DNA of 64,000 bases from Bacteroides sp. (GCA_011056635.1 DSEO01000153.1:7563-71562), one strand, 5' to 3'. Numbered from the stretch's first letter, positions 32,106 to 54,555 are shown. The notes: a model not told the origin generated them from the sequence alone. Program-made: numbers and translations.

Positions 32106-32115
32106 GTATGAATGA

Positions 32116-34425: not shown

Positions 34426-34696
34426 TACAGCGGTTATCTTAAACAGTTATTATATTTGTCAATCCACATTCTAAAATTCAAGTCGCTCACCAATCCATCA
34501 ACTTCCCCAAATGCATTCGATTGTCTATCTTTGATCTACGCATTTTTTAAAGCCTGGCCATTGGCTAAATTTAAAAAAAAAAATAATTATCTCTGCTATG
34601 ATGGTTGTTTGGTGTTTTTTTACAGCAATATTTGCTTTCCTTCTTCATCCTTATGTTTTCATTGGCTATTATTGTTCAATCAATTATGATAGACCA

Positions 34697-37532: not shown

Positions 37533-38327
37533 ATGAAAATGAAGCAAAAGAATATTCTGATTTTTATCTCAGCACTGCTGATCGGCGGTCTTGCCGCCTG
37601 TACTTCTTCGGGAAAAAAGGACAGTGAAGCCGAATCGGCCGAAGAGGTGAAGGCAACTCCCAATACCCTGAGCGACCAGGAAAAGGAAGAGGGCTGGATG
37701 TTGCTTTTCGACGGGGAAACCACCGAAGGCTGGCGGGGTTATAACATGGAAGCATTTCCCGACACAGGCTGGGCCATCGAGAACGGGGCCATCAAGTGCT
37801 CTGAGTCGGGCATGGGGGAAGCCGGATTCGGAGGTGATATCATCTATGACAAAAAGTTTACCAATTTCCATCTGAAACTTGACTGGATGATCTCGGAGGG
37901 TGGCAACTCGGGCATTTTTTTCCTGGTGCAGGAGATCCCGGACAAAAATATCTGGTACACCGCCCCGGAGTACCAGATCCTGGACAACTGCAGCAACCAC
38001 ATTGACAATACGCTGGGTGTGAACGGTAACCGGAGGGCCGGCAGCCTGTATGACCTGATCCCGCCGGAGCCCCAGAATGCAAAATGTGCCGATGAGTGGA
38101 ACCAATCGGAGATCATCGTTTACGAAGGAACCGTCGTTTTCCGGATGAATGGTGAAAATACCATGGAGTTCCACCTCTGGACCGACGAGTGGAACAAGAT
38201 GATCGAAGAAAGTAAGTTCCCGGATTTCAACCCAGATTTTGCCCGTGTGGCCAAAACCGGCTACATCGGCCTCCAGGACCACGGGCATGCCGTGTGGTTC
38301 CAAAACATCAAGATCAAGGAGCTCTGA
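37533..38327 (+). CDS. DUF1080 (3-keto-disaccharide hydrolase-like, PF06439) lipoprotein
   Basis: Lipobox LIGGLAAC. Typical motifs LFDGETTEGWRGY, GNSGIFF and the C-terminal GYIGLQDHGHAVWFQNIKIKEL. Confidence 0.8.
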   Translation: MKMKQKNILIFISALLIGGLAACTSSGKKDSEAESAEEVKATPNTLSDQEKEEGWMLLFDGETTEGWRGYNMEAFPDTGWAIENGAIKCSESGMGEAGFGGDIIYDKKFTNFHLKLDWMISEGGNSGIFFLVQEIPDKNIWYTAPEYQILDNCSNHIDNTLGVNGNRRAGSLYDLIPPEPQNAKCADEWNQSEIIVYEGTVVFRMNGENTMEFHLWTDEWNKMIEESKFPDFNPDFARVAKTGYIGLQDHGHAVWFQNIKIKEL

Positions 38328-38758: not shown

Positions 38759-41080
38759 TCAGAGGACCACGCCTTCCATGGACTTCTCCAGTGCACGCGC
38801 GTGGGTAAGGAATTCTTCCAGGGTCATCTCTTTGTAGAAAAGCAGCCCGTGGGTGGTCCTGACGCGGGGACTTTCATGTTGGTAGAAATAGTTCTTGCCC
38901 AGGAGCAGCTGCATCATTTTCAGCTGTTCCACCCAGATCCTTTTGGTAAGATCGCTGAATTTCCCGTCATGCTGGTAACTGGGGAAGGAAGCATCCACCT
39001 GGCTCAGGTAACTGTTTGTGAAAGCATCGTCCATCACTCCCATGGCATTCAGTGATACCGGTACAATGCGGTTGGCCTCTGCCGGATGGAACCGGTACCA
39101 TACATTCCTGTAGCCCCAGATCCTCAGGCCTGAGAGATCTTTTTCCCTGCTCCACAGCTTCAGGGCCTCGGCAATGACCTGGAGGACTTTGTAATGGGTA
39201 TCCGGACCGCTGCCTTCCGGGTCAAAAGCCAGGCTGACAATGGTGGGACTGATCTCGCGCAGCTGTGCCAGAATGGGCTGCACATCCCTTTCACGGTTCG
39301 GCTGCTCCGTAAAAACATCTCCCGTATAGAAACCCAGACGCATGTGGTGCACATTGCGGGACTGGATCCCGAAGCAGGCCCATACCAGTTCTTCCTCGAA
39401 TTCACGCACCATGCCTTTCAGCTTCTGGATATCAGGCAGGTTGATCTCGCCGTCATAGCTTTTTTTCAGGATCATCAGGATGTTGTTGATCTCATCCCTC
39501 AGCTGGTCCGCATTCTTCACCCCGTACAGGCCGACAATATCGCGCACCAGCCTGTGGGCCAGGCCGCGCCTGAGCTCATAATCCTCCCCCGAGGCCACTT
39601 TGAGAAGGTAATGGTTTACATCTTTGTCCCGTTTATACTTGTACCCGGTTTCAAAAAAATCCGGGTACCGGGTCATCTGGATCAGTCCCACATCCAGAAA
39701 ATGCCTGGTATCTTCCAGGGCTTCGATGATGAATTTGTTGGTCACCGCCGTAAATCCCGAAGTGAGGATCGAGAAAAAATTCGCGTTGGTCTCATTCCGC
39801 ATGAGCCGGTGGATATGCGGAAGCAGCCCCAGCATGATGTCGTCATGGTGGGGCCCCGTGTGGTAAAGAACCTGGCTTGTTTCGGTAAACATACCCTTCT
39901 CGAACCTTTCAATAGCGGACCGGATCACGGAAGGAACCGTATGCTCATCCAGTCCGGGGATCATCCTGCAGTACCGGTCCTCTTTCAAATCGCTCATGGT
40001 CAGATGGTGGCCGTATTTGGCCAGCTTCACACACAGATCGATGACAGCCCGGTCTGTTTTTTCCTGGGACCATTCTCCCTGGCTGTAGTAAGCATCCACG
40101 GATGACTGAAGGGATGAAGCGGCACCGGTGGTCAGGTAAAACCTTGCATGATCCAGCTTTGAAAGCGCACTGGCAGGATACAGGTTGGAAGGATTTTTCT
40201 CCAGCGCATCCCTCACCATGGGCGCCTTGGCCTCACCTGCAGCAAAAATAATGGCCACGGCTTCCGGATTGCAGGTAATGGTCTCCAGCCCGATGGTGAT
40301 CACCAGCCTGTTCCTGGAAACCTCGATGCCCCCCAGATCGGAGGCAGCCACCGCCTGGGTCTCGAAATTGGTCTCCGTCAACCTGGTGGTTGAAAAATGA
40401 TCCGATCCCCGGACATTGAAGGCAATATGGCCATCGGGACCAATGCCGCCCAGAAAAAAACCGATCCCTCCAAGCTCCCTGATCTTTTTCTCGTAATCGA
40501 CACACCAGTTATCGATGGAAAAGATGGAAGCCTGTTGCACTTTCTCAAACTGGCTTTTGGGCTCCCTGTACCTGAGGGTGAGGTCCACCCGGTTATCGGG
40601 GAACACCTCGGTAAAGTGACGGCCTTCAGCCAGGGGGATCTCATCTGAATTGATCAACAGTGCCCTTCGGGGATCCAGCCCGAACCCCCTGATATAATAT
40701 TTCATCACGTAATTGCAGAAACTGTTGTGCTGGCGGGAACTGATGGGATAAAATTCATCGATCTGTACAAACCGGAGCTTTCCCAGGGAAGGCTTGCCCA
40801 TCCGGCCAATCCCGTATTTGCTCCTCAGATCCCTGATCTTTCGGCTATCCCAGTGCTCCATCAGATAGGATGTCCATTTGATGAAATATTCGGGTGTTTT
40901 TCCGGTGGGCAGACTGATGATCCCTTCGGGATGCTCCCTGACCCACTCAAGGAACCTCAGGGCGGTAAAAAGTCCCAGCAGCGGAAAATTCTCCACCACG
41001 ATGTAAGGAATGCGGGTGTGCATAGCCTGTGAACCGGAAGTTTTATAGAACGCTGATTCTACTTTTGATATGAATTGCAT
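38759..41080 (-). CDS. nagB: Glucosamine-6-phosphate deaminase-like domain fused to an LmbE/PIG-L-type deacetylase-like domain (long Bacteroidota NagB form)
   Basis: NagB motif GIGPDGHIAFN in the N-terminal third. LmbE-type motif GPHHDDIMLG in the middle. The start could be 41080 or the Met at 41023. Confidence 0.7.
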   Translation of the reverse strand: MQFISKVESAFYKTSGSQAMHTRIPYIVVENFPLLGLFTALRFLEWVREHPEGIISLPTGKTPEYFIKWTSYLMEHWDSRKIRDLRSKYGIGRMGKPSLGKLRFVQIDEFYPISSRQHNSFCNYVMKYYIRGFGLDPRRALLINSDEIPLAEGRHFTEVFPDNRVDLTLRYREPKSQFEKVQQASIFSIDNWCVDYEKKIRELGGIGFFLGGIGPDGHIAFNVRGSDHFSTTRLTETNFETQAVAASDLGGIEVSRNRLVITIGLETITCNPEAVAIIFAAGEAKAPMVRDALEKNPSNLYPASALSKLDHARFYLTTGAASSLQSSVDAYYSQGEWSQEKTDRAVIDLCVKLAKYGHHLTMSDLKEDRYCRMIPGLDEHTVPSVIRSAIERFEKGMFTETSQVLYHTGPHHDDIMLGLLPHIHRLMRNETNANFFSILTSGFTAVTNKFIIEALEDTRHFLDVGLIQMTRYPDFFETGYKYKRDKDVNHYLLKVASGEDYELRRGLAHRLVRDIVGLYGVKNADQLRDEINNILMILKKSYDGEINLPDIQKLKGMVREFEEELVWACFGIQSRNVHHMRLGFYTGDVFTEQPNRERDVQPILAQLREISPTIVSLAFDPEGSGPDTHYKVLQVIAEALKLWSREKDLSGLRIWGYRNVWYRFHPAEANRIVPVSLNAMGVMDDAFTNSYLSQVDASFPSYQHDGKFSDLTKRIWVEQLKMMQLLLGKNYFYQHESPRVRTTHGLLFYKEMTLEEFLTHARALEKSMEGVVL

Positions 41081-41104
41081 ACGGCGGGTTTGTATCTGAT
41101 CTGT

Positions 41105-41866
41105 TCACATATAAAGCTCATCCAATTCTGTCATGGCAAGTTCCACCATCAGATCGGCAAGCTTGGCGGTCACCTCCTCAAAACATTTCCGGCCCTTTTC
41201 CCCGGTAGCCTTTCGGGGATCTCCGACCCCTGTATCATTCGTAGTACTGCTCCACTTCCTCTCGGCCCATGCCCAGGACTCATTCAGTGCCCGGACCCTG
41301 AATTTTTTCGCGGCTCCGCTCCCAGCCTCGGAAAGAGGCCGTACCAGGTCGGGCCGGATATGGAGCATCAGGCTGGTTTCCATTTCATCGGCATGGTCTC
41401 CTTCATGCTCGAACCACTCCTGCTTGTTCACCGACCGGAACCAGTTGCAGGTGGAGATGAACATCTCCGGGAACAGTCTCCCCACTTCCCTGATCATCTG
41501 CCTGAAATCATTGCCCCCGTGTCCGTTCACCACCAGCAGTTTATCAATGCCGTGACCGGCCAGGCTTTCCGCCAGATCGCCCAGGATGGCCATCTGCGTG
41601 CTCGGGTAAAGGTTCAGGGTCATTGCGATATCGGTCTGACCGGTGTTCACCCCCACCGGTATGGTGGGAAGGACAACCACCTTTGCGCCCCGCTCCCAGG
41701 CCACTTTTGCAGATTCGTACACAATGGCCTCCGATTCATAATTATCGGTGCCATACGGAAGGTGATAATTATGCGCCTCGGTGGCCCCCCAGGGCAGGAC
41801 CGCAAGCCGGTAATGCTCATCTTTTACTGTTTGCCAGCTGGTTTCAGCAAGAATATAAGGCCTCAT
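41105..41866 (-). CDS. Creatininase-family amidohydrolase
   Basis: 253 aa with WGATEAHNYHLPYGTD and VVNGHGGN, the metal-ligand motifs of the creatininase fold. No signal peptide. Confidence 0.75.
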   Translation of the reverse strand: MRPYILAETSWQTVKDEHYRLAVLPWGATEAHNYHLPYGTDNYESEAIVYESAKVAWERGAKVVVLPTIPVGVNTGQTDIAMTLNLYPSTQMAILGDLAESLAGHGIDKLLVVNGHGGNDFRQMIREVGRLFPEMFISTCNWFRSVNKQEWFEHEGDHADEMETSLMLHIRPDLVRPLSEAGSGAAKKFRVRALNESWAWAERKWSSTTNDTGVGDPRKATGEKGRKCFEEVTAKLADLMVELAMTELDELYM

Positions 41867-41950
41867 TTTTCTCGTGGAGTATGATAATCCGGTGAATAAC
41901 GGGTAAAATTAAAAAAAAACGGCACAAATAATGGGAAGACCGCCGGAGAA

Positions 41951-43114
41951 TCAATCCTGACGGAGGATCCGGCAGCGGGCATGGTATCTGTCCAGGATCT
42001 CCAGGGTCTCCCCTACGGGCAGGGCATCCATGCTTCTTCCGGACCGGCCCTCCATCGGGCCGGCCATGAACAGGGAATTGTAAATCGCTTCTTCGGTGGC
42101 TTCCACCACGGCCAGGAAGAGGGGTGACATGCGGTCGTTGCGGAGCCGCGGTCCCGACTGCTCGGCCTCACCCGACTGGTGGGGGATCCGCAACGCAGGA
42201 TGGGTACTGAACGCTATGGCATAATCGCCGCTCCCGTTGGAGGAAAATCCTCCGACCCTCCCGAAGGCCAGGAACGAGCGATCGCCCAGTCTTTCCAGGT
42301 TCCGGGATGAGAGCGGCGCATCGGTGGCGATGACGATCATGCATGAGCCGTCCACCTGGTATGGCACCCGTCCGGCCATGTAGTGATTTCCAAGCTCCTC
42401 TCCCACCGGTGCACCGTTGATGGTCAGGATCCCCCCGAAATTGGTCTGCACCAGCACCCCCACCGTATACCCTCCCATTTCCCCGGGCAGCACCCTGGAC
42501 GCGGTCCCTATCCCCCCTTTGAATCCCATACAGATCGTGCCTGTCCCTGCGCCCACGCAACCTTCAGTCACCGGTCCGGATCCGGCCGATGCAATGGCTT
42601 CGCGCACATGGGAAATGCGCACATGTCCCCCGCGAATATCATGCAACCACCCGTCGTTGGTCTCTCCTGCCAAAGGGTTGACCGACCGGACCTCTTCATT
42701 TCCGGGCAATGCAAGCATATACTGCACGAGTCCCTCTGCTGCCGTGAACACATCCAGTGTATTGGTCAGTGCAACCGGGGTTTCCAGGTTGCCCAGTTCC
42801 TTCACCTGGGTGAATCCGACAGCTTTCCCGAAACCATTTCCCACACTTACAGCCGCCGGCACCTTCTCCTGGAACAGGTTGCCATCGTGTGGGATGATCA
42901 CAGTCACCCCCGTCCTGACCGAATCACCTTCGATCAATGTCCGGTGACCCACCCTGACTCCCGCCACATCCGTAATGGCATTCCACTGACCGGGGGTTAG
43001 GATCCCCGGCTCGATCCCCAGTTCCCTGGCTCGTTGCCGGTCCTGGGAGAAGCATGTCAGGCTGCCAACCAGAAGGACCGGCCAGAAAACGGCCAGGAAT
43101 GGATGCATGTACAT
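41951..43114 (-). CDS. P1/S58 (DmpA/BapA-type) aminopeptidase family, with signal peptide
   Basis: N-terminal hydrophobic leader (FLAVFWPVLLVGSLTCFSQ). Family motifs NAITDVAGVRVGH and GAGTGTICMGFKGGIGTAS. Confidence 0.75.
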   Translation of the reverse strand: MYMHPFLAVFWPVLLVGSLTCFSQDRQRARELGIEPGILTPGQWNAITDVAGVRVGHRTLIEGDSVRTGVTVIIPHDGNLFQEKVPAAVSVGNGFGKAVGFTQVKELGNLETPVALTNTLDVFTAAEGLVQYMLALPGNEEVRSVNPLAGETNDGWLHDIRGGHVRISHVREAIASAGSGPVTEGCVGAGTGTICMGFKGGIGTASRVLPGEMGGYTVGVLVQTNFGGILTINGAPVGEELGNHYMAGRVPYQVDGSCMIVIATDAPLSSRNLERLGDRSFLAFGRVGGFSSNGSGDYAIAFSTHPALRIPHQSGEAEQSGPRLRNDRMSPLFLAVVEATEEAIYNSLFMAGPMEGRSGRSMDALPVGETLEILDRYHARCRILRQD

Positions 43115-43118
43115 TTTT

Positions 43119-43877
43119 TCAGTTTTCAGGTTTCAGTTTTGAAGGATCGATACTGCGGATCAGTGCCCTGGCAAGGACCCTGGTCGGGTCGATAACCATC
43201 AGGCTTCCGGCTTCCTCCGCACTCACCGCCATGGGGATCTCGGTACATCCCAGAATCACCGCCTCCGCCCCATGCTTTTCGAGGTAAGCGATCCCGCTGA
43301 GAAGATTTTCCCTGGCCCTGGGGTGGACGGGATCCGGGCAGGATTTGATCCCGTATTCCGGATCGTATATGGCGGGATGGATCAATCTTTCCTGCAACTC
43401 AGGAGCAGGCAGAACGACCTGGTATCCCATATTCTCCAGTGCTTTCGCGTACACCCCGCTCCGATAGGTCCCGGTAGTGGAAAGCACACCGATGCTGGAA
43501 AGCCCGGGGTAAGTTTTTGCCAGGTAAACAATGGTTTCGTCGATCATATGAAGCAGCCTGATGCGGCTGGCGCTTGCCTGCAGCCTGTCAAGGATCACCC
43601 CGAAGATCTTTTCTGCATGTGCGGTGTTGCAGGGGATGCCCGCAACCGTTGCACCGGCCGCTTCCAACCGGATCAGTACCTCTGCAATGACCACACCGGG
43701 ATTTACCCCGGTCTTTCCCAGCAAATATGCGGTACGGTCCGGGATCCCGGAAGGCAGGGAGAAAAGCAGGGTGTCCAGATGCTCCTGGTCGTTTCCCGCC
43801 ACGGTATTGTCAAGCACTTTGCGCAACAGGTCAAGTCCGGCATAAGGCCCTGTGCCCCCCACAATCCCGATCATCAT
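43119..43877 (-). CDS. Aspartate/glutamate-type amino-acid racemase family
   Basis: IGIVGGTGPYAG at the N-terminus and both catalytic-Cys contexts (IPCNTAH and LGCTEIP). The start overlaps the lacI stop by 4 nt (ATGA). Confidence 0.8.
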   Translation of the reverse strand: MMIGIVGGTGPYAGLDLLRKVLDNTVAGNDQEHLDTLLFSLPSGIPDRTAYLLGKTGVNPGVVIAEVLIRLEAAGATVAGIPCNTAHAEKIFGVILDRLQASASRIRLLHMIDETIVYLAKTYPGLSSIGVLSTTGTYRSGVYAKALENMGYQVVLPAPELQERLIHPAIYDPEYGIKSCPDPVHPRARENLLSGIAYLEKHGAEAVILGCTEIPMAVSAEEAGSLMVIDPTRVLARALIRSIDPSKLKPEN

Positions 43878-44923
43878 CCAGCAACAGGTAAGGGTTTTTT
43901 CTTCATGGAGGATTCCCTGACGACCAGCTGATGATCCAGTACAATGGTTTTTGTCAGTACCGGATAGTCCTGGCCGAGTATTTCGATGAGCGTGGATGCG
44001 GCCACCTCCCCCATTTCCCTGCCGGGGTAGTGGATGGTTGTCAGCCCGGGTTCGATCACCCTGGAGAGATGCACATTGTTGAACCCGACCACGGCGATAT
44101 CCTCCGGGACCCGGATCCCGTGCTGTTTCAGTTCACATATCACGGAAACAGCCGAAGAATCATTGGCGGCAAATATCCCGTCCGGTGGAGAATCCATCTT
44201 CAGTATCTTTTCTACCGCAAACGTGCCGGTCTCCTCGTTCAGGATATCGATGAATGTCAGCTGTTTATCATCGGAGATCCCGTGTTCTGCTAGCGCTTTC
44301 CTGTAACCCGCGAACCGTTCCTTGTACACATTACAGACCAGGTTCCCCCCGATGAACATGATCCTGCGGCATCCCTGTTCGATGAGGTGTGATGTCGCAT
44401 CATATCCCGCTTTTTTGTTATCGATCACCACACTTGTGCATTTGTAATGAGAATCCACCTTGACCCGGTCAAACAGGACCACCGGGATCCCTTTCCCGAA
44501 AAACATGTCCAGGTGGTTCAGATCCCTGGTATCACAGGCCAGGGAGATCAGCAGTCCCTCCACCCGGCTGTTGTACATGGTGGATATGTTGACCTTTTCT
44601 TTTTCCACAGATTCATGCGACTGACTGATGATCAGGTTATAGCCCTTCTGATTCACTTTCTTTTCAATACCGGCCACGACCGAAGACTGGAAGCTGCTGT
44701 CAAGCCTGGGCAGGATCACTCCCAGCGTGTTGGACCTGTTCTTTCTCAGGTTCCGGGCAAAGGTATTCTGCTGATACCCCATGGCCCGGGCCTTATCGAT
44801 GATCTTCCTGGTGGTCTCTTTGCGGATGGCGGGATGATTTCTCAATCCCCTGCTCACCGTGGAAGCTGAAAGGTTCAGTGCCTTGGCAATATCATATATG
44901 GTAACCTCTTTTTTCTGGTTCAT
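43874..44923 (-). CDS. LacI-family transcriptional regulator
   Basis: N-terminal HTH VTIYDIAKALNLSASTVSRGLRNHP followed by a periplasmic-binding-protein-like sugar-binding core. 349 aa. Confidence 0.9.
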   Translation of the reverse strand: MNQKKEVTIYDIAKALNLSASTVSRGLRNHPAIRKETTRKIIDKARAMGYQQNTFARNLRKNRSNTLGVILPRLDSSFQSSVVAGIEKKVNQKGYNLIISQSHESVEKEKVNISTMYNSRVEGLLISLACDTRDLNHLDMFFGKGIPVVLFDRVKVDSHYKCTSVVIDNKKAGYDATSHLIEQGCRRIMFIGGNLVCNVYKERFAGYRKALAEHGISDDKQLTFIDILNEETGTFAVEKILKMDSPPDGIFAANDSSAVSVICELKQHGIRVPEDIAVVGFNNVHLSRVIEPGLTTIHYPGREMGEVAASTLIEILGQDYPVLTKTIVLDHQLVVRESSMKKKPLPVAG

Positions 44924-44984
44924 GGGATAAAATCCCGGTTAACCGGATTGTGGTATTAAATGTAAAAAAAATCCGCCATTTTCA

Positions 44985-45000
44985 TTGCAATCGGTTGCAA
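44985..45000. promoter_or_regulatory. LacI-family-type operator candidate TTGCAATCGGTTGCAA in the divergent lacI / UROD-like promoter region
   Basis: 16-nt near-palindrome (7 of 8 pairs) with a central CG. It lies 33 nt upstream of the GTG at 45033 and 62 nt upstream of the lacI start. Its reverse complement recurs at 49734-49749. Confidence 0.65.
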
Positions 45001-45032
45001 TTTTTCTACATTTATGATGAAAAAATTGACAA

Positions 45033-46064
45033 GTGACCGAAGCTCAATGGAATAAACTCCGGGATGTCATTGACGGAAAAGCATTTAATCCCATTCCCAC
45101 CGGATTCATCGTGGACAGTCCCTGGTTGCCCAACTGGTACGGAGTAAATATTCTCGATTATTTTACAAATGACGAAATCTGGCTGAATGCAAACCTGCAT
45201 GTGGCGGATACATTCCCCGGTGTCATGTTCCTTCCCGGTTTCTGGTCTGAATTCGGAATGTGTACGGAACCATCGGCATTCGGTTCAAAATGCGCCCTCC
45301 CGAAGAATGAGTTTCCCAACACACACAGGGTGATCCATTCCATGGAAGAAATACCGAAAATGAAAAAGCCGGATCCCAAGACGGACGGTTTTGCCCCCTT
45401 CATGCTCAACCGCCTGCTGCTTAACAGGCAAAAAATCGAGGACAGCGGTCACCGGATCTGCTTTTCGGTATCCAGGGGTCCGCTCAATATCGCCTCTTTC
45501 CTGATGGGGATGACCGAATTCATGACCGCGATGATCACGAATCCGGAAGAGGTCCATCAGCTCCTCGATCTGATCAATGAATACCTGCTCGAATGGCATG
45601 AACTGCAGGCAGCGTCCATCCCCACCATCGACGGAATCTTCGTCCTGGATGACATCATCGGCTTTATCGGGGAAGAAGAATTCAGGGAATTCGGTTTGCC
45701 CTATTTCAAAAAGCTTTTCAGCAGGGAGGCATCGGTGAAGTTCCTGCATAACGATGCCACCTGCAAGTCTTCCATCAAATACATGAACGAGATGGGCGTC
45801 AACCTTTTCAATATGGGTTTTGAATCAGATCTCAATGAATTGAAAACGCTCACGATGGACCGTGTCACCATGATGGGGAACATCCCTCCCAGGGATGTAC
45901 TGGCCAACGGCACCGGCGAAGAGATTGAAAAAGCGGTGAAGGCTCTGATCGGGGGACTGAAGCAGAAAAGCAGGGTCATCATGTCCTGCGGCGGAGGAAT
46001 GCCCCCGGATGTGACCTCGGAACAGATCCGGGCTTTCACGGACGCGGTCGCAAAGTACAGCTGA
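45033..46064 (+). CDS. Uroporphyrinogen-decarboxylase (URO-D/MtaA-like) family protein, cytoplasmic
   Basis: 343 aa with a GTG start; no in-frame ATG lies upstream. The overall URO-D-family pattern includes GPLNIASFLMG, DGIFVLDD..G.I..EEF.EFGLPYFKKL, FLHNDA and MMGNIPPRDVL. No signal peptide. Confidence 0.7.
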   Translation: MTEAQWNKLRDVIDGKAFNPIPTGFIVDSPWLPNWYGVNILDYFTNDEIWLNANLHVADTFPGVMFLPGFWSEFGMCTEPSAFGSKCALPKNEFPNTHRVIHSMEEIPKMKKPDPKTDGFAPFMLNRLLLNRQKIEDSGHRICFSVSRGPLNIASFLMGMTEFMTAMITNPEEVHQLLDLINEYLLEWHELQAASIPTIDGIFVLDDIIGFIGEEEFREFGLPYFKKLFSREASVKFLHNDATCKSSIKYMNEMGVNLFNMGFESDLNELKTLTMDRVTMMGNIPPRDVLANGTGEEIEKAVKALIGGLKQKSRVIMSCGGGMPPDVTSEQIRAFTDAVAKYS

Positions 46065-46090
46065 AACAGATGATATAATATATATATGGT

Positions 46091-47347
46091 ATGAAACGAA
46101 CACTAACAATCACACTGCTGCTGGTCGCCCTGCAAATATCAGCCCAGGAAATCGCAAGTTTGAATGTTTCTGCAGGTGACGTTGGCCGCCTGGATTGCCC
46201 GGTTTGCGTAAACCTGGACCAGATCAACCATAATGAGGACAGCGGCAGCCTGCTGCTCTTTGAGGTTGTCGGTAACAAGCAAGTTCCTGTTCCCTGTCAG
46301 CTGGAGACCGGACACTCCACCAGGCTGTGGTTTATACTTGCCGGCGAAACCGCCAAAGGGGAAAGCCGGCGGTTCGTTCTTCTCAGGCAGGAGGGGAACC
46401 CGGCATCCACTCCTGTCAGGTTGCATAAAAAGCATCAGAGCCTCAACCTGAGTTACCAGGATCATCCTGTACTGGATTACCAGTTCGAAACGATGTACCC
46501 GCCCGAGGGAGTTCCGGTCCTGTTCAAGCGTTCAGGCTTCATTCATCCCCTGTGGTCCCCCGACGGACAGGTCCTTTCGAGGATCCAGGCACCGGACCAC
46601 TATCACCATTACGGGATCTGGGGTCCCTGGACGAAAACCCATATCAACGGCCGGGAGGTGGACTTTTGGAACCTGATGAAAGGAGAAGGAACCGTCAGAT
46701 TCAGCGGTTTCCTCTCTGAAATAGAAGGACCTGTCTACAGCGGTTTTAAAGCCTTACAGGAGCATATTGATTTCGGCGGACGGGGAGAAGACCGGGTGGC
46801 CATGAACGAGGTGCTGGACGTCCGGGCCTGGAATGTGGGGAAAGGCGATGCATGGCTGATCGATTACACCACCACGCTGAATACCCCGCTCGATTCAGGG
46901 ATCATGCTGGATGCCTACCGGTATGGCGGCGGGATCGGATACCGGGCCACCGGGGACTGGCACAAGGATAACTGCACCGTCCTCACCTCCGAAGGCAAAG
47001 ACAGGTTGACTGCGGACGGCAGCAAAGCGAAGTGGTGCATTGTGGAAGGAGCGTCTGTCTCGGAAAAAGGCAGAAGCGGCATCCTGTTCATGGGGCACAC
47101 TTCCAACCGGGATTTCCCGGAACCCATGCGGGTATGGCCCGTGGACCAGAACCGGGGTCGGGGGGACATGTACTTCGAGTTCTGCCCCATCCGGCACAAG
47201 GACTGGAAACTGGATGAGGGCAGGGATTATACCCTGAAGTACCGCCTGCTGGTGTTCGACGGAAATGTTTCCGCGGAAGAGGCGGAGATGTACTGGCAGG
47301 GATTCGCCAATCCTCCCAGGGTTGAGATCCTGGGACCTGACAAATAA
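46091..47347 (+). CDS. PmoA-like / DUF6807 family protein, secreted (long form)
   Basis: Signal peptide MKRTLTITLLLVALQISAQE. Family core PDHYHHYGIWGPWTKTHINGREVDFWN. Confidence 0.65.
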   Translation: MKRTLTITLLLVALQISAQEIASLNVSAGDVGRLDCPVCVNLDQINHNEDSGSLLLFEVVGNKQVPVPCQLETGHSTRLWFILAGETAKGESRRFVLLRQEGNPASTPVRLHKKHQSLNLSYQDHPVLDYQFETMYPPEGVPVLFKRSGFIHPLWSPDGQVLSRIQAPDHYHHYGIWGPWTKTHINGREVDFWNLMKGEGTVRFSGFLSEIEGPVYSGFKALQEHIDFGGRGEDRVAMNEVLDVRAWNVGKGDAWLIDYTTTLNTPLDSGIMLDAYRYGGGIGYRATGDWHKDNCTVLTSEGKDRLTADGSKAKWCIVEGASVSEKGRSGILFMGHTSNRDFPEPMRVWPVDQNRGRGDMYFEFCPIRHKDWKLDEGRDYTLKYRLLVFDGNVSAEEAEMYWQGFANPPRVEILGPDK

Positions 47348-47359
47348 CACATTGCACAG

Positions 47360-48262
47360 ATGATGAATAGAAAGAGCGCATTGTATATCATCCCGGTGCT
47401 TTGCCTGATCGCAATACAGGGCCCGGCACAGAAGAAAGTAACAGCCGAAAAGCTGGGCGATAAGATCGAGATCAGGATCAACGGGGACCTGCTGACAAAT
47501 TACATCCTTTCCACATACGAGAAATATCCTTTCTTTTTCCCGGTGAACGGTCCCTCGAAGGCAAGTGTAACCTCCATGAGGAATGCCAATTACCCCCATC
47601 ACAGTTCCCTTTTCTTCGGGTGTGACCGGGTAAACGGGGGCAATTACTGGCAGGAGGGACTGGACGAGGGACAGATCATTCCCCTGAGGGCCGATATCCT
47701 GGAATCGGGAAGTGACAGGGTGGTCATTGAGAATGAAAATATCTGGAAACGGCCAGGGGCCATGGCACCCATCAGGGATGTGCGGACCATCAAGGTTACT
47801 GCTCCTTCCGATGCGATGTACCAGATCGACTTTGAGATCATCATGGAAATGTTGATGGATGTGACCATCGAAAAAACGAACCACTCGCTCCTGAGCGTAA
47901 GGATGGACCCTGACCTGGCCGTCACCAACGGGGGAACCATGGTGAATGCGGAAGGCGAGACCGGGGAGAAGGACACCTTCGGGAAACGCTCTCCGTGGAT
48001 GGACTATCACGGAGCCCGGATGGGTACCAAAGAAGGCATTGCCATTCTTCAGCACCCGTCCAATGAATGGTTCCCGGCACCCTGGTTCACCCGGGATTAC
48101 GGTTTTTTTTCTCCCACACCCATGTACTGGCCTGAAAACGGGAAGAATACGGTACTGCAAAAAGGCCGGCTGCTGAAACTGCGGTACAGGGTCCTGGTAC
48201 ATACCGGCGATCATCAGGAAGCCGGCATTGCGGCCCAGTTTGAAAAGTACAGCGGCGAATAG
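47360..48262 (+). CDS. PmoA-like / DUF6807 family protein, secreted (short form)
   Basis: Signal peptide MMNRKSALYIIPVLCLIAIQGPAQ. Family core YPHHSSLFFGCDRVNGGNYWQ. Confidence 0.65.
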   Translation: MMNRKSALYIIPVLCLIAIQGPAQKKVTAEKLGDKIEIRINGDLLTNYILSTYEKYPFFFPVNGPSKASVTSMRNANYPHHSSLFFGCDRVNGGNYWQEGLDEGQIIPLRADILESGSDRVVIENENIWKRPGAMAPIRDVRTIKVTAPSDAMYQIDFEIIMEMLMDVTIEKTNHSLLSVRMDPDLAVTNGGTMVNAEGETGEKDTFGKRSPWMDYHGARMGTKEGIAILQHPSNEWFPAPWFTRDYGFFSPTPMYWPENGKNTVLQKGRLLKLRYRVLVHTGDHQEAGIAAQFEKYSGE

Positions 48263-48310
48263 GCCGGATCATCATGAATGCATGTTCAATCCTATAAAAA
48301 CCATAAACCC

Positions 48311-49687
48311 ATGAAACGAAGAAATTTCTTAAAAACCACATCTGCGGCAGCAGCCAGTGCCATGGTAATACCCACCGTGGTACCCTCGTCGGTATTCGGT
48401 AAAAGCGCACCCAGCAACAAGATCCAGATCGGACAGATCGGGTGCGGCCGGATCGCCAGGGGCCATGACCTTCCAGGAACGATGCGATGGGATGTCTCCC
48501 GGGTGATTGCCGTAAGTGATGTGGACAAAAACCGCATGCTGGACGGCAAAAAGTTCGTGGAAAACTTTTATGCCAGGAAAGAGAACAGCGACAATGCCAT
48601 CGAGGTAAAAATGTATGATGATTACAAGGAGATGTTGCTGAACCCGGCAATCGATGCGGTGATCATCAGTACACCCGACCACTGGCATTCACAACCGGCC
48701 ATTGAAGCCTGCCTGGCAGGGAAGGACATTTACCTGCAGAAGCCTACTTCACTGACGATCACCGAGGGCCGGTTGCTGAGTGACATCGCCAGGAGACAGG
48801 GGACCATCCTGCAGCTGGGCACACAACAGCGCTCTTCCGAACAGTTCAGGATCGCCGCAGAACTGGTCAGGAACGGCAGGATCGGCAAACTGCATACGGT
48901 GAAAGTTGGTTTGCCGGGTGATCCGGCAGGTCCGGAAGCAGGTCCGGAGCCCATCCCTGACAACCTCAATTACGATATGTGGCTGGGTTCCACCCCTTAT
49001 GTGTATTATACGGAAATGGGCGTGCACCCGAAAGAGGGATACGACCGGCCGGGATGGTTGCGGAGGGAACAGTTCGGCGCCGGGATGATCACCGGCTGGG
49101 GCCAGCATCATTTCGATTCAGCCGCATGGGGAATGGACACGGAATTTACCGGTCCGGTATCCCTCGAGGCGGTCGCTGAATTCCCCAAATCCGGATTGTG
49201 GGATGTCCATGGTGATTTCATGGTGAAGGCCGAATACGAGAACGGCATCACCATGTATACCAGCGGCGGCTTCCCCAACGGGATCAGGTATGAAGGGTCG
49301 GACGGATGGATATTTGTATCCAGGGGAAATTACCAGGCCACGGCCAGTGATCCGGTATCCCAGGAGAGAAGCAGCAGGGCCTTGAATGCCAGCGATCCTG
49401 AGATCCTGAAATCGGTGATCGGGGAGGATGAGATCCATCTTTACAGGAGCGAGGAGCAGCATAAGAACTGGCTGGATTGCATCATCAGCAGGAAAGAGCC
49501 GATTTCCCCCGCAGAGATCGGTCACCGTACCTGCAGCGTCTGCCTGCTGAGCCATATCGCCATGAAACTGCCCAGGAAACTTTACTGGGACCCTGTGGTG
49601 GAGAGATTCCTCAATGATGAGGAGGCCAATGCCATGCTGAGCAGGCCGCAACGCGCACCATACGGTACAAACTACATCAGAATCTAA
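48311..49687 (+). CDS. Gfo/Idh/MocA-family oxidoreductase, TAT exported
   Basis: Probable start MKRRNFLKTTSAAAASAMV (ATG 48311; the track starts at 48278). Rossmann start IQIGQIGCGRIA. Also VIISTPDHWH. Confidence 0.8.
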   Translation: MKRRNFLKTTSAAAASAMVIPTVVPSSVFGKSAPSNKIQIGQIGCGRIARGHDLPGTMRWDVSRVIAVSDVDKNRMLDGKKFVENFYARKENSDNAIEVKMYDDYKEMLLNPAIDAVIISTPDHWHSQPAIEACLAGKDIYLQKPTSLTITEGRLLSDIARRQGTILQLGTQQRSSEQFRIAAELVRNGRIGKLHTVKVGLPGDPAGPEAGPEPIPDNLNYDMWLGSTPYVYYTEMGVHPKEGYDRPGWLRREQFGAGMITGWGQHHFDSAAWGMDTEFTGPVSLEAVAEFPKSGLWDVHGDFMVKAEYENGITMYTSGGFPNGIRYEGSDGWIFVSRGNYQATASDPVSQERSSRALNASDPEILKSVIGEDEIHLYRSEEQHKNWLDCIISRKEPISPAEIGHRTCSVCLLSHIAMKLPRKLYWDPVVERFLNDEEANAMLSRPQRAPYGTNYIRI

Positions 49688-49733
49688 ATTTATGAAGTTA
49701 TCTCTTGGCCAATTAAAAAGTTTTTGTAACTTG

Positions 49734-49749
49734 TTGCAACCGATTGCAT
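49734..49749. promoter_or_regulatory. LacI-family-type operator candidate TTGCAACCGATTGCAT upstream of SusC
   Basis: 15 of 16 nt are identical to the reverse complement of 44985-45000. It lies 54 nt upstream of the SusC ATG (49803). Confidence 0.65.
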
Positions 49750-49802: not shown

Positions 49803-52739
49803 ATGAAAAAAAATCTTCTATTCTTTTTCTTCGGAATCACCTGCAGCCTATTCTGCATGCAATCATTTGCGCAGGTAAGGACTGTGACAGGTGTGGTCAC
49901 AGATGCTGCCACCGGAGAGCCCCTCATCGGGGTGAACATCGTGGTCGAAGGGACCACCATCGGAACGATCTCGGATTTGAGTGGAAACTATTCAATCTCT
50001 GTGCCGTCGGCCGAATCGATCCTTGATTTCTCTTTTGTGGGTTACACCACCCAGCAGGTTCCGGTGGGAAACCAGACTGAGATCAACGTGGCGCTTGAAC
50101 CCGGGGCCGTCGGCCTGGACGAGCTGGTGGTTATCGGATACGGTACCCAGCGCAGGGGAAGCATCACAGGGTCCGTTAGCTCGGTATCTTCCGACGACAT
50201 CCAGGAGCGGCCCGTTCTGAATGCGGGCCAGGCGCTCCAGGGAAGGGCTCCCGGCGTGGTTGCCCTGTCTAACGGGGGAAGCACACCCGGAACCGATGTG
50301 ACCATCCGGATCCGTGGCCGCAGATCGCTGACCGCCACCAACGAACCGCTGTACGTAGTGGACGGAATTCCGTGGCAGGGAAGCATTACAGGGCTCAACC
50401 CCAGGGATATCAAATCCATGGAGGTCCTGAAAGATGCTTCAGCCACCGCCATCTACGGATCCAGGGGCGCCAACGGGGTGATATTGATCACCACCTACCG
50501 GGGCGGGAACATGCCCACCACCGTATCCTATTCGGGACACTATGGCGTCTCCAGTGTGCTGGCTGTGCCCGATCTGATGAACGGTGAAGAGTACTACAGG
50601 CTGAAAGAGGTGGGAGGACGCGCTTTCACCCAGGCAGAACTGGATGCCTATGCAGCCGGAGTATCCACCGACTGGGTGGACCTGGTGCTGGGTAACGGCT
50701 ACCAGACCAACAACCAGCTGAGCATCCGGGGAGGCAATGAAAATACTGCCTATGCCATGTCGGCAAACTTTTTCAAAGAGGGCGGTGTGATCGAATTGCA
50801 GGACTACACCCGGAAAACCTTCCGCGTGAACCTGGACCACCAGGCCAACAAGTGGCTCAAAGTGGGGACATCCACCCAGGTGCTGAAAGGACTGCAGAAT
50901 GTAGGCCCCAACACCTACGGGGGCGCCTGCAACATTTCACCGCTGGCCGAACCCTATGATGCCGAAGGGAACCTGATCTTCCGTCCGGGTGCCGACCCGC
51001 TGCTCTGGAACCCGCTGGCCGATTACGAAGAGAACATCAGCCTCGATGAACGGGAATCTTTCAGGGTGTTCAGCAATATCTTCGCTGAGGCCGACATCCT
51101 GAAGAACCTGAGTTACAGGATGAACTTCGGACCCAGTCTCCGGGAGTACAGGAGGGGCGTTTTCCGGGGGAGCAATTCCAGCTCCCGCCAGGGAGGAACC
51201 CCACTGGTCCGCAAGGAACACCAGCGGATTTACGAGTACACATTCGAGAACATCCTGACCTACGACCTGGTAACGGACAATCACAACCTGAATTTCACCG
51301 GTCTTTACAGTATCCAGGAGTCCAATGCGGAAGAGACATTCATAGAAGTGGAGAACATCCCCTATGAAACACAGCAGTACCACAACCTGGGAACGGCCGA
51401 GACGGTGAACGATATGGGAAGTGACCTTTCCGAGTGGGGGATCATGTCTGTCATGGGCCGTGTGAACTACGAGCTGATGGGCAAGTATATGCTGACCCTG
51501 ACCGGCCGCTGGGACGGTTCGTCCAGGCTGGCAGAAGGCAACAAATGGGGATTCTTCCCCTCCGTGGCCGCCATGTGGCGGATCAGCAGCGAAAGTTTCA
51601 TGTCAGGACAGGACCTGTTCAACGACCTGCGCCTGAGGGCCAGTTACGGGATCACCGGTAATACGGGGATCGACCCCTACCAGACCCGGGGATCACTCAG
51701 CAGGAGTTTTTACAATTTCGGCGACAATGCGGGACTGGGCTTCAGGCCGGGAACCCTGGCCAACCCCGATCTGCGCTGGGAATCCTCTGCCACGACCAAC
51801 ATCGGACTGGATTTCGGGCTGATGCAGGGCCGCATCGTGGGTACCTTCGAGGTATACAACACCCATACATCCGACCTGCTGCTGGAAAGGCAGCTGCCCA
51901 TCACTTCCGGCTTTAACTCGGTGTTCGAGAATGTCGGTGAGACCCGCAACAGGGGCTGGGAACTGGGCCTGACCACCCGGAACATTGCCACCGGTGATTT
52001 CAGCTGGGAGACCAACCTGAACCTGTTCGGCAACAAGGAAGAGATCCTGGAGCTGTACGGAACGGGAGAGGATGATGTCGGCAACGAGTGGTTCATCGGT
52101 GAGCCGCTTACAGTCTGGTATGATTACGAGAAAATAGGGATCTGGCAGCTCGGTGAAGAAGATGCTGCTTCCGTCTATGCACAGTATCCGGGTGAGATCA
52201 AGATCAAGGACCAGGATGACAACGGTGTCCTGAACCAGGACGACAGGATCATCCTCGGCTCGGACATGCCCAGCCTGACCGTCAGTCTGGGATCCCGCCT
52301 GGAGTATAAGGGAGTCGACTTTTCTTTCATGCTGCTGGGTGTTTTCGGCCATACGGTGTACAACCGTTACCTCAGAGACAGGAGCACGCTGCAGGGAAGG
52401 TACAACAACCTGAATGTGGACTACTGGACCGAGACCAATCCCACCAATGAGCATCCCAAACCCGATGGTTCAAGGGAATACCCGCTTTACGAGACCACAA
52501 GGTGTTATTACCCGGGCGACTTCTTCAAGATCAAGAATGTGCAGCTGGGTTACAATATTCCGCGCACCGTGCTGTCCAATGTGGGTGTCAAGAAGCTGAG
52601 ACTCTATCTGAACCTGGATACATTCTTCATCTGGTCGCACCTGCAGAAGGGACTGGACCCGGAGAAATACGGAGGTGACATATCAGCCGATGTTCCATCG
52701 ACCCGCATGTATTCATTCGGGCTAATGGTTGATTTTTAA
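49803..52739 (+). CDS. SusC-like TonB-dependent transporter
   Basis: Signal peptide. CarbopepD_reg-like domain (VTGVVTDAATGEPLIGVNIVVEG). Plug (VVDGIPWQG...GSRGANGVILITT). Barrel ending in SFGLMVDF. Confidence 0.9.
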   Translation: MKKNLLFFFFGITCSLFCMQSFAQVRTVTGVVTDAATGEPLIGVNIVVEGTTIGTISDLSGNYSISVPSAESILDFSFVGYTTQQVPVGNQTEINVALEPGAVGLDELVVIGYGTQRRGSITGSVSSVSSDDIQERPVLNAGQALQGRAPGVVALSNGGSTPGTDVTIRIRGRRSLTATNEPLYVVDGIPWQGSITGLNPRDIKSMEVLKDASATAIYGSRGANGVILITTYRGGNMPTTVSYSGHYGVSSVLAVPDLMNGEEYYRLKEVGGRAFTQAELDAYAAGVSTDWVDLVLGNGYQTNNQLSIRGGNENTAYAMSANFFKEGGVIELQDYTRKTFRVNLDHQANKWLKVGTSTQVLKGLQNVGPNTYGGACNISPLAEPYDAEGNLIFRPGADPLLWNPLADYEENISLDERESFRVFSNIFAEADILKNLSYRMNFGPSLREYRRGVFRGSNSSSRQGGTPLVRKEHQRIYEYTFENILTYDLVTDNHNLNFTGLYSIQESNAEETFIEVENIPYETQQYHNLGTAETVNDMGSDLSEWGIMSVMGRVNYELMGKYMLTLTGRWDGSSRLAEGNKWGFFPSVAAMWRISSESFMSGQDLFNDLRLRASYGITGNTGIDPYQTRGSLSRSFYNFGDNAGLGFRPGTLANPDLRWESSATTNIGLDFGLMQGRIVGTFEVYNTHTSDLLLERQLPITSGFNSVFENVGETRNRGWELGLTTRNIATGDFSWETNLNLFGNKEEILELYGTGEDDVGNEWFIGEPLTVWYDYEKIGIWQLGEEDAASVYAQYPGEIKIKDQDDNGVLNQDDRIILGSDMPSLTVSLGSRLEYKGVDFSFMLLGVFGHTVYNRYLRDRSTLQGRYNNLNVDYWTETNPTNEHPKPDGSREYPLYETTRCYYPGDFFKIKNVQLGYNIPRTVLSNVGVKKLRLYLNLDTFFIWSHLQKGLDPEKYGGDISADVPSTRMYSFGLMVDF

Positions 52740-52759: not shown

Positions 52760-54490
52760 ATGAGAAAAATGAAAAAAATTAAATATCTAATTTTAGTAGT
52801 TTCCGTCGCATTGGTGTCCGGTGTCTCCTGTGATGTCCTGGAAGAAGAGATCATTTCGGGAATCACCGTGGATACCCATTACAGCACACCGGATGGATTC
52901 GAAGATGCGGTGAATGCCGCTTATGAAAGGTTCCGGTATTTCTACGGCAATGAAGACGGAGGAGAGATCACGGTATTCGGAACCGATGAATACACCAACG
53001 GAGGACATGGCGGGGCCCAGTTCATCAACAAGTATATCGCGGGCCTTGACGGGTCATCCGGTACTTTCTGGAATCCCTGGCAACACTTCTACATCGGGAT
53101 CAACACCTGCAATGCGGTGATCGGCCGCGCCCCGGATGCAGATATTCCGGAAGCGGAAAAGGCCGTCATGGTGGGCGAGGTTAAATTCCTCAGGGCCCAG
53201 TATTACTTTCACCTGGTCCAGTTCTGGGGCCCGGTCCACCTGACCCTGGAAGAGACGATCGGGGTGGAGACCGAGGCCCGAAGGGACCCCGAAAGCGATA
53301 TCTATGATGCCATCATTGCGGACCTGGAGGATGCCATTGATGTGCTTCCCATGAAACAGGCTGAATGGGGCAGGATCACCAAACCGGCAGCACAGCACGC
53401 GCTTGCACATGTGTACCTGACCAGGGCCTACCAGCCTTTCGGAGAGGGAACGCAGGATTTCAGCCGGGCAGCCGACCTGGCCGTGGATGTGATCAATAAT
53501 TCGGACCGTGAACTGCTGGATGATTTCCAGCGGGTCTACAATTCGGATGACGGCAGCGGGGGACTGGTCCACAATGCCGAGAGTGAACAGAACAACGAGA
53601 TCATCTGGTCCATCCAGTTTTCCAGTGATATGATGCTGAACGGTGACGGGAACCAGTCCCATCTCCACTTCAGACCTTGGTACGAGACATTCAATGACGG
53701 ACTGGACCGGGCCCTGGGTCACGGCTACGGCCGTCCCTGGATCCGTTTCAGGCCGACCCCCTGGATGCTGGAAAATTTCAGGCCGCTGGATGTGGATTCC
53801 AGGTTCGAGAAATCTTTCCAGATCGTATGGCTGTACAACACGGAAAATAACATTCCGGAAGGTGCTTCGGTAGGAGACACCGCCATCTGGATCACGGACA
53901 AGACCGCGGCCGAGTTTGACACAGCCGCCGTCCGTGCACGCCTTCCCGGTGTCAACCTGTTCACCTGGAACCTGGAGGAAATTGACCGCGACTGGTGCCT
54001 CTGGAGAACCGATGTTTCTGTGAACGCGCCCCACATCAACATCTTCCCGTGCCCCTGGAAGATCGATGACAACCTGCGGCCTTCGCTGAATGAGCAGAGA
54101 GGTTCACGCGACTACATCGTTTACAGGCTGGGCGAAACCTACCTGATTGCCGCCGAGGCCATGCTGGGCAGGGATGGCAACGGGAGCGCTGCCATGCAGT
54201 ACATCAATGCCCTCAGGGAAAGAGCTGCCTATCCGGGCAAAGAAGCCCAGATGCATGTTGGTGCAGGAGACATTGACCTGGATTTCATCCTGGACGAGTG
54301 GTCCAGGGAGTGCTTCGGGGAACAGAGCAGATGGCTTGATCTCAAACGGACAGGGAAACTGCTGGAGCGCGTCCGGGCATACAATCCCGATGCGGCACCC
54401 AACATCAAGGATTTCCACGTGTTGCGTCCAATCCCTGAGAATCAGATTACCCGGACTACCAACGATTACGGACAGAATCCGGGATACTAG
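52760..54490 (+). CDS. SusD/RagB-family outer-membrane lipoprotein
   Basis: Lipobox ALVSGVSC. SusD features include ECFGEQSRWLDLKR near the C-terminus. Directly downstream of SusC. Confidence 0.85.
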   Translation: MRKMKKIKYLILVVSVALVSGVSCDVLEEEIISGITVDTHYSTPDGFEDAVNAAYERFRYFYGNEDGGEITVFGTDEYTNGGHGGAQFINKYIAGLDGSSGTFWNPWQHFYIGINTCNAVIGRAPDADIPEAEKAVMVGEVKFLRAQYYFHLVQFWGPVHLTLEETIGVETEARRDPESDIYDAIIADLEDAIDVLPMKQAEWGRITKPAAQHALAHVYLTRAYQPFGEGTQDFSRAADLAVDVINNSDRELLDDFQRVYNSDDGSGGLVHNAESEQNNEIIWSIQFSSDMMLNGDGNQSHLHFRPWYETFNDGLDRALGHGYGRPWIRFRPTPWMLENFRPLDVDSRFEKSFQIVWLYNTENNIPEGASVGDTAIWITDKTAAEFDTAAVRARLPGVNLFTWNLEEIDRDWCLWRTDVSVNAPHINIFPCPWKIDDNLRPSLNEQRGSRDYIVYRLGETYLIAAEAMLGRDGNGSAAMQYINALRERAAYPGKEAQMHVGAGDIDLDFILDEWSRECFGEQSRWLDLKRTGKLLERVRAYNPDAAPNIKDFHVLRPIPENQITRTTNDYGQNPGY

Positions 54491-54512: not shown

Positions 54513-54555
54513 GCTGCCTTCCGGGAATATGAGGTGCCCCGGAAGGCAGCTTTTT
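54513..54555. terminator. Bidirectional hairpin terminator between convergent SusD and ampG-like genes
   Basis: Perfect 13-bp stem GCTGCCTTCCGGG / CCCGGAAGGCAGC with a 12-nt loop, followed by TTTTT on the + strand. It lies 23 nt after the SusD stop and 4 nt after the ampG-like stop. Confidence 0.75.

Follow-up and report, generated by a model that had tools for sequence, protein, structure and literature searches.

Does a short palindrome that occurs in two intergenic regions 4.7 kb apart mark the reach of a single repressor, and if so, how far does that reach extend? The question is raised by a 64,000-nt stretch of DNA deposited as Bacteroides sp. (GCA_011056635.1 DSEO01000153.1:7563-71562; we call the whole stretch the window and count positions from its first letter), which encodes a LacI/GalR-family regulator at 43874-44923 on the minus strand. 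The DNA comes from an uncultured member of the Bacteroidota that is represented in several metagenome assemblies. An earlier note on this DNA had proposed one local regulon under the adjacent LacI protein, comprising the divergent promoters of lacI and of a UROD-like gene and the promoter of a SusC gene, and this proposal gains support from conservation at orthologous loci and from a weight matrix. By this comparative evidence, the 16-bp palindrome TTGCAAyCGrTTGCAA is probably the operator of the regulator encoded at 43874-44923, and we put the probability of this reading at about 0.82.

Palindromes at lacI and SusC

The first palindrome, O1 (TTGCAATCGGTTGCAA, 44985-45000), lies in the divergent promoter region of lacI and the UROD-like gene (45033-46064, plus strand), within a gap of 109 nt, at 32 nt from the GTG start codon of the UROD-like gene and 61 nt from the lacI ATG. 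The second, O2 (TTGCAACCGATTGCAT, 49734-49749), falls within the 115 nt that separate the stop codon of an oxidoreductase gene (49687) from the ATG of SusC (49803). It had been placed correctly before SusC in the earlier note, at a distance of 54 nt where we count 53 nt to the ATG. Both were recognized by reading the sequence, by the weight matrix and by conservation. O2 is the reverse complement of O1 except for one base, and the claim that they have 15 contiguous nucleotides in common was borne out by an independent listing of 15-mers repeated in the window, which returned the inverted 15-mer TGCAATCGGTTGCAA at 44986 and 49734. O1 is even, 16 bp long and centred on CG, and departs from a perfect palindrome only by T/G at positions 7/10. 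A third sequence had been pointed out at 13063-13078, where it is present, just as O1 and O2 are present at the positions given for them.

Among LacI-family transcription factors, 1251 of 1303 have even palindromes as sites and the centre is CG in 1173; the sites are placed 30-140 bp upstream in more than 75% of cases and in coding regions in fewer than 1%, and more than three quarters of the local regulators are autoregulated (PMC4052901). The form described there for operators of the family, an even palindrome of 16-22 bp with a central CG (PMC4052901), is that of O1 and O2, which agrees with the hallmark that had been attributed to these near-palindromes; the 13063 site lacks the CG. All three lie in non-coding DNA about 30-140 bp 5' of a start codon and all three leave a phylogenetic footprint at the orthologous regulator or targets, neither of which holds for a further copy at 5249. 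The form and position of O1 and O2, and the presence of one of them at the promoter of the regulator itself, are typical features of LacI-family sites.

The presumed binder is a protein of 349 aa. In Pfam its helix-turn-helix (HTH) domain matches LacI (PF00356, residues 8-53, 35.1 bits against a cut-off of 27), and its effector domain, of the type-I periplasmic-binding-protein fold, matches Peripla_BP_3 (6.9e-34), Peripla_BP_1 and Peripla_BP_4. The protein aligns over its full length, HTH and hinge included, with CcpA (1.9e-52, to residue 339) and PurR (4e-45), and is a full-length member of the LacI/GalR family. Its hinge, F-A-R-N-L59-R, lines up with V-A-R-G-L of CcpA; in PurR and CcpA it is the hinge leucine that inserts into the central base step. 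In the 12 orthologues that were aligned, of 18, neither the recognition helix (S-x-x-T-V-S-R) nor the hinge residues N53, A56, L59 and R60 vary, so that the DNA-reading residues fit a motif shared among these proteins. No other LacI-family gene was found in the window, the copy at 43874-44923 being the sole one, and Pfam reported no other transcription-factor domain in the open reading frames (ORFs) of the window that were scanned.

With up to 3 mismatches allowed, the consensus TTGCAAYCGRTTGCAA has 7 matches in the window against 0.89 expected, and none of 100 shuffled sequences reached 7. We also built a weight matrix from 14 distant autoregulatory sites, from which the window and its two close relatives were left out. 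O2 ranked first in the window with 26.6 bits and O1 second with 21.0 bits, followed by the copies at 5249 (18.9 bits) and 13063 (18.2 bits), and then by a match of 13.7 bits. Mononucleotide shuffles gave about 0.005 matches of at least 20 bits and 0.025 of at least 18 bits per window, and a single match of 18 bits or more turned up in 769 kb of unrelated Bacteroidota loci, which amounts to about 0.08 per 64 kb. In 17 loci that carry a lacI orthologue (316 kb), 35 of the 37 sites of at least 14 bits were intergenic by a crude ORF call, compared with 12% of the sequence. The bare core TGCAA-N4-TTGCA occurred 24 times in the 1.25 Mb of sequence sampled, all but 2-3 of them at the sites described here. 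Because of these core counts and of the intergenic bias, the motif is not a dispersed repeat as far as the sample shows, a possibility that the earlier note had raised against its own proposal.

The 17 loci were collected with the LacI protein, one genome per species, and comprise metagenome-assembled genomes of Bacteroidales together with Cytophagales (Fibrella, Rudanella, Fibrivirga); their LacI proteins are 46-84% identical to that of the window. A palindrome with 0-2 mismatches to TGCAAnCGnTTGCA stands 62-80 nt 5' of the lacI start in 15 of the 17 loci, amid unrelated flanking sequence. As for the other two, the palindrome is 179 nt upstream of lacI in L014, and in L015 good sites are found at divergent promoters nearby. 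In L016, the closest long relative (84% LacI identity), the gene order is unchanged and both sites are retained: that between lacI and the UROD-like gene, and that before SusC, at a distance of 55 nt and within an invariant block of 19 nt. L001 likewise retains O1. In the Cytophagales loci the gene content differs, yet a site is found about 75 nt before lacI and another 85-106 nt before a divergent SusC/SusD pair. Elsewhere in the lacI loci, sites precede SusC, GH115 and MFS_2 genes and other neighbouring operons. The footprinting at orthologues that had been proposed as a check thus shows the palindrome to be kept.

Some further features of these loci were observed. Four Cytophagales loci (L007, L009, L011 and L017) have a third good site of 15-20 bits directly after the lacI stop codon, at about 11077-11099, which is 360-490 nt before a pair of genes for a LuxR-type response regulator and a histidine kinase. 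LacI orthologues with 52-57% identity (L003, L005, L007, L008, L014) are flanked by glucuronoxylan and glucuronate genes, namely GH115, CE15 glucuronyl esterase, GH10, SASA esterase, MFS_2, SDR, ManD-like enolase and UxuA, and in L003 and L008 a UROD-like gene is directly next to the lacI orthologue. The neighbourhoods suggest that the ligand of this orthologue group as a whole may be of the sugar-acid type, although the targets proposed in the window are other genes, and hint that the UROD-like protein could act on a uronate-type substrate; 4-O-methyl-glucuronate would be speculation.

The variant palindrome and an intragenic copy

The palindrome at 13063-13078 (ATGCAACAGATTGCAT; supported by its sequence, by conservation and by its 18.2 bits) has the half-sites and the spacing of O1 and O2, with AG/CT in place of CG at the centre. 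It lies between two divergent genes that Pfam identifies as those for a GFO/IDH/MocA-like oxidoreductase of 503 aa (GFO-like; 11443-12954, minus strand) and an LTD protein of the type IX secretion system (T9SS) type (13194-17147, plus strand), 108 nt upstream of the former start and about 115-116 nt upstream of the latter. Both genes are possible targets, and so is, together with the LTD gene, that of a GH5-CBM6 cellulase (17222-19216, plus strand; Pfam). On the minus strand, the GFO-like gene heads a string that goes on with GH9/GH5-T9SS, RraA-like, AhpC/thioredoxin and TIM-barrel genes, with synteny in L102, L105 and L019.

Relatives of the 13-kb region were gathered by a metagenome scan with the GFO-like protein and by look-ups of TIM-barrel orthologues. 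Between the GFO-like and LTD genes of L018, L102 and L105/L106 the same 16-mer recurs, CG-less centre included (AATCTGTT), and L019 has a near-copy; the 16-mer forms the longest invariant block of a five-sequence intergenic alignment in which the mean column identity is 63%. The window and L018 both have about 116 nt between this element and the LTD start, and differ in the spacing to the GFO-like start (108 vs 73). In a relative similar to SpSt-1230, the centre is CG at lacI/UROD (L001) and CT at GFO-like/LTD (L105). Because another locus, L107, encodes the TIM-barrel protein P0002 of L105 and bears the sample prefix of L001 (Ga0116197), L001 and L105 appear to come from one species, in which case the difference between CG and CT looks maintained. 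The earlier note had the position and the missing CG right, and calling the copy degenerate was wrong, as its centre is itself conserved in relatives. Judged by these alignments, the variant is a genuine conserved regulatory element and not a decayed site.

The chances that the variant site belongs to the regulon of this LacI protein seem about even. Most simply, it would be a lower-affinity operator of the same repressor. A fuller version, in which one LacI-type repressor has two selected classes of operators, a high-affinity CG class at its own and the SusC promoters and a CT/AG class at GFO-like/LTD, strikes us as doubtful. If true, graded occupancy would couple an uncharacterised periplasmic pathway (a TAT-exported oxidoreductase, two DUF6807 proteins and the UROD-like protein, plus enzymes of the racemase, DmpA and creatininase types) to T9SS-secreted cellulases, and such a two-class regulon would indicate the substrate and role of the DUF6807 and UROD-like enzymes. 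A GFO-like homologue is found a few kb downstream of NagB-like genes in L023 (432-11509) and L025 (1185-11509), in L023 near a creatininase gene as well. Since the counterparts of these genes in the window are part of the proposed lacI operon, this neighbourhood suggests that the regions at 13 kb and 44 kb are functionally connected.

Another near-palindrome (ATGCAATATATTTCAT, 10.7 bits) is conserved about 25 nt 5' of the GFO-like start in L018 (9950-9975), L102 (1229-1244) and L105 (about 2750), where it overlaps a -7-like box (TATATTTC). The counterpart in the window is degenerate (AAATGATATATTTCCT, about 12985-13000), and in the window it is moreover separated from the variant site by a 40-nt insertion.

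The copy at 5249-5264 (GTGCAACCGATTGCAT), overlooked in the earlier note, has a perfect 14-nt core, has 15 contiguous bases in common with O2 and lies inside a xylose-isomerase-like TIM-barrel gene (4873-5775, minus strand), where it spans the codons GAT GCA ATC GGT TGC ACT (D-A-I-G-C-T). All six orthologues with 65-78% identity have E-E-I-G-C-T, with GAG/GAA GAG replacing GAT GCA (for example GAG GAG ATC GGT TGC ACG), and the left half-site is absent from them. The conserved I-G-C-T peptide forces the right half-site, and the left half is lineage-specific. As the copy is intragenic and lacks its left half in all six orthologues, we rejected it as a functional operator; it is probably fortuitous and outside the system.

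Gene units and proposed mechanism

All gene names given in the earlier note agree with Pfam. On the minus strand, lacI is followed by genes for an Asp/Glu racemase (43119-43877), an S58/DmpA peptidase (41951-43114), a creatininase-family amidohydrolase (41105-41866) and a 773-aa protein with a weak NagB-like match (38759-41080). The lacI stop and the racemase start overlap by 4 nt, the remaining gaps in the unit 38759-43877 are 4-84 nt, and the order racemase-DmpA-creatininase-NagB-like recurs in L016 and L001; the five genes, lacI included, appear to form one operon. The divergent unit on the plus strand (45033-49687) consists of the UROD-like gene (45033-46064, with its GTG start also in public gene calls), two DUF6807 genes (46091-47347 and 47360-48262) and the gene for a GFO/IDH/MocA oxidoreductase with a twin-arginine translocation (TAT) signal (48278-49687), all by Pfam. 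Its gaps are 12-26 nt, public records have the same gene calls, and the unit is syntenic in L016 and L001. It is followed on the same strand by genes for a SusC-like TonB-dependent transporter (49803-52739) and a SusD-like lipoprotein (52760-54490), again by Pfam. The only Pfam families of the SusC protein are CarboxypepD_reg, Plug and the beta-barrel, with no N-terminal signalling domain of the type coupled to extracytoplasmic function (ECF) sigma factors reported.

A scan with our own -7 box model, the Bacteroidota consensus being TAnnTTTG, gave a candidate box (TACATTTA) on either side of O1, at 45007-45014 (plus strand), which may serve the UROD-like operon, and at 44957-44964 (minus strand), which may serve lacI. 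They lie 6 nt and 20 nt, respectively, from the edge of O1, and the TTG of the left arm of the operator lies 19 nt upstream of the plus box and, when the arm is read on the minus strand, 23 nt upstream of the minus box. The plus-strand block TTTTTCTAnnTTTATG is conserved in L001 and L016. A scan for sigma-70 promoters did no better than with shuffled sequences, as expected for Bacteroidota. No terminator-like site was found between the oxidoreductase gene and SusC.

From what is known of the family, a dimer would sit on each operator, with its two HTH heads reading the TGCAA half-sites in the major groove and its hinge helices (A56, L59) entering the minor groove at the central CpG. The left arm of O1 may supply the -33 region TTG for both back-to-back promoters, so that one dimer could occlude both. 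A dimer bound to O1 would then shut off lacI-racemase-DmpA-creatininase-NagB-like, by autoregulation, together with UROD-like-DUF6807-DUF6807-GFO. Since no promoter was assigned to SusC and no terminator-like site lies before it, a dimer at O2 may hit an internal promoter or, as a roadblock, stop transcription that reads through into SusC/SusD. The effector that releases the repressor would be a small molecule, probably a sugar or sugar acid derived from what SusC/SusD import, and the variant site may tie the GFO-like/cellulase and LTD/GH5 units to the same regulon. Because the protein ends at residue 349 without an obvious C-terminal heptad, we would expect dimers and no looping between O1 and O2, 4.7 kb apart. 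The sequences themselves show the sites, where they lie, how they are conserved and to which family the protein belongs; repression rather than activation, the effector, the promoter elements, the operon boundaries and binding itself are all parts that we infer.

A possible auxiliary operator, ATGCAATCATTTGCGC, was noted in the signal-peptide codons of SusC (49857-49872), about 123 bp downstream of O2, with a counterpart in L016 (2615-2630). It scores 2.4 bits in the window and 9.8 bits in L016, is explained by the conserved peptide CMQSFAQ, and was rejected.

Alternative readings and related systems

The earlier note had argued that a 15-mer repeated by chance is very unlikely. This argument fails: 64 kb offers about 4e9 position pairs, so that repeated 15-mers are expected by chance, and the window holds 16 such pairs against a mean of 4 in shuffles. 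The significance of O1 and O2 stems instead from their palindromic form, their promoter positions and their conservation across species. A chance repeat without function could still point to the 5249 copy, which is equally good, intragenic and not conserved, but it does not account for a palindrome with a central CG at promoters, for its conservation in L016 and L001 and with lacI across the phylum, or for the top ranks given by an independent matrix. We rejected it on conservation and matrix rank, and consider it very improbable. Less probable still is that the palindromes act as RNA hairpins (terminators or attenuators) or are copies of a dispersed repeat resembling repetitive extragenic palindromes or miniature inverted-repeat transposable elements. 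O1 could form a 7-bp stem followed by UUUUU; however, the hairpins are weak (-5.1 to -5.7 kcal/mol, z -0.85 to -1.36), O2 has no terminator-like site, orthologous sites keep sequence and not pairing (e.g., TGCAAGCGATTTCA and TGCAACCGATTGCT), and only 16 bp are common to the copies, with unrelated flanks and a tiny copy number. The hairpin or terminator was rejected for its weak energies and the lack of covariation.

More attention is due to the possibility that a global LacI-family regulator like CcpA or PurR, encoded elsewhere, binds the palindromes and that the adjacency of lacI is incidental. The core GCAAyCGrTTGC is close to the PurR box (GCAAACGTTTGC), from which it differs only at the two positions flanking the CG, and it fits the cre consensus save for position 3; moreover, CcpA and PurR are the best solved relatives of the regulator. 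We nonetheless regard a global regulator as improbable, because the site follows the lacI orthologue at a constant 62-80 nt though the other genes differ completely, and because matches cluster a few kb or less from lacI and hardly occur in the 769 kb of other Bacteroidota loci. A closer contest concerns the 13-kb site alone: O1 and O2 could be true LacI operators and the CG-less palindrome the site of another regulator, a paralogous LacI-type protein or an unrelated dimeric factor, and thus outside the regulon. The strict conservation of the CT/AG centre in five loci, the pairing of CG in L001 with CT in L105 in what seems a single species, the central CG that is the norm of the family and the distance of 30 kb from lacI speak for it. 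Against it, the half-sites and spacing are identical to those of the LacI operator, and for its 18.2 bits one expects 0.025 matches in a shuffled window and, going by real loci that are unrelated, about 0.08 per 64 kb. The orthologous autoregulatory sites of L007 and L010 likewise have no central C, GFO-like homologues adjoin NagB-like and creatininase genes in L023/L025, and a second LacI gene that might own the variant site, or any LacI paralogue near its homologues, was found neither in the window nor in more than 80 homologous GFO-like loci. We hold a separate regulator at 13 kb to be a serious contender, somewhat short of even.

Several points weigh against the reading of the palindrome as the operator of this LacI protein, and of the variant as part of its regulon. 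The case for the operator is comparative throughout. The candidate promoter elements are weak matches, TAnnTTTA instead of TAnnTTTG, and the -7 box scan, which gave plausible boxes at O1 only, assigned no convincing promoter before SusC. Since the motif resembles the generic boxes of the family (CcpA cre, PurR box), a paralogue elsewhere in the genome could share it. As the distant orthologues stand among glucuronoxylan and glucuronate genes, the content of their regulons and their effector need not match those of the window. The variant site lacks the central CpG that hinge helices normally need, and the conservation of its centre, without drift, would fit recognition by a different protein just as well. 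Upstream of GFO-like homologues with at most 72% identity, the variant site was absent in about 75 metagenome loci.

By every feature testable here, the system works like, and very probably is, a gene switch made of a LacI/GalR-family repressor and its operators, which is an ordinary and well understood kind, with nothing new on LacI-type regulation. It has the domain architecture of E. coli PurR and Bacillus CcpA, to which the regulator aligns over its full length with the same hinge leucine, and the 16-bp even palindrome with central CG of O1 and O2 is as in PurR/CcpA-type systems. It differs from them in that the regulator would be local, autoregulated and beside its targets rather than global, and in that the host uses Bacteroidota-type -33/-7 promoters. 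PurR and CcpA bind their DNA together with a co-repressor, but in most local members of the LacI family it is an inducer that brings about release.

The closest cases described in the phylum are the predicted Bacteroides regulons of KdgR (BT0487), UxaR (BT0824), UxmR (BT3613) and UxuR (BT1434) (PMC3878776; PMC4052901). They are described as local, mostly autoregulated regulons of sugar-acid catabolism, some with periplasmic or outer-membrane components, and they resemble the present case in phylum, family and the comparative-genomics nature of the evidence. The distant orthologues of the LacI protein, beside glucuronate and glucuronoxylan genes (SDR, ManD-like, UxuA, GH115, CE15, GH10), are akin to these sugar-acid regulons. 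The targets proposed here (UROD-like, two DUF6807, TAT-GFO, racemase, DmpA, creatininase) differ from those of the four regulators, and the studies in question, limited to 11 Bacteroides genomes, do not include the orthologous group of the window, which comes from environmental Bacteroidales and Cytophagales.

Control of a SusC/SusD pair with its cognate enzymes is also what the canonical regulators of polysaccharide utilization loci (PULs) exert, namely SusR, hybrid two-component systems and ECF sigma/anti-sigma pairs. None of these types was found by Pfam among the scanned ORFs of the window, where control would instead be by a cytoplasmic LacI-type repressor. LacI-type control of PULs is less common and has been reported before, with examples of the ManR/KdgR type. 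A literature search for DUF6807 or UROD-like proteins in PULs found no papers, and one for LacI-regulated PULs returned irrelevant matches only. Beyond routine are the SusC/SusD pair under a LacI-type repressor and the conserved CG-less variant, which is a small natural test of how important the central CpG is for a LacI-family protein. In an uncultured Bacteroidota lineage, the predicted regulon would tie genes of unclear role (two DUF6807, UROD-like, TAT-exported GFO, and racemase/DmpA/creatininase) to one SusC/SusD pair and one sensor, and co-regulation is one of few handles on such genes. The motif and its 14-locus weight matrix can be reused for related genomes in which this regulator family stands beside glucuronoxylan genes.

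Other genes of the window were also surveyed. Adjoining SusD, genes for an MFS protein (AmpG/BT1-like), a SpoIID-domain protein and a DUF4922 protein occupy 54555-58730 (minus strand), and a fragment of a NamZ exo-muramidase gene lies at the window end (63273-63938, minus strand). These are of the peptidoglycan-recycling type, which brings to mind the racemase and DmpA encoded with lacI; no site resembling the operator was found at either group. Two more SusC/SusD pairs, interleaved with three fasciclin-domain proteins (19231-34425, minus strand), and a gene of the peptidyl-arginine-deiminase type (34598-35875) have no site above 12 bits upstream. At 36014-37498 (plus strand) a GFO/IDH/MocA oxidoreductase gene is followed by one for a 3-keto-disaccharide hydrolase (DUF1080; 37533-38327, plus strand), and no operator-like site lies 5' of this pair. 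Together with the TIM-barrel gene at 4873-5775 and three more GFO-type genes, the pair makes the window rich in parts of the oxidative 3-keto-glycoside route.

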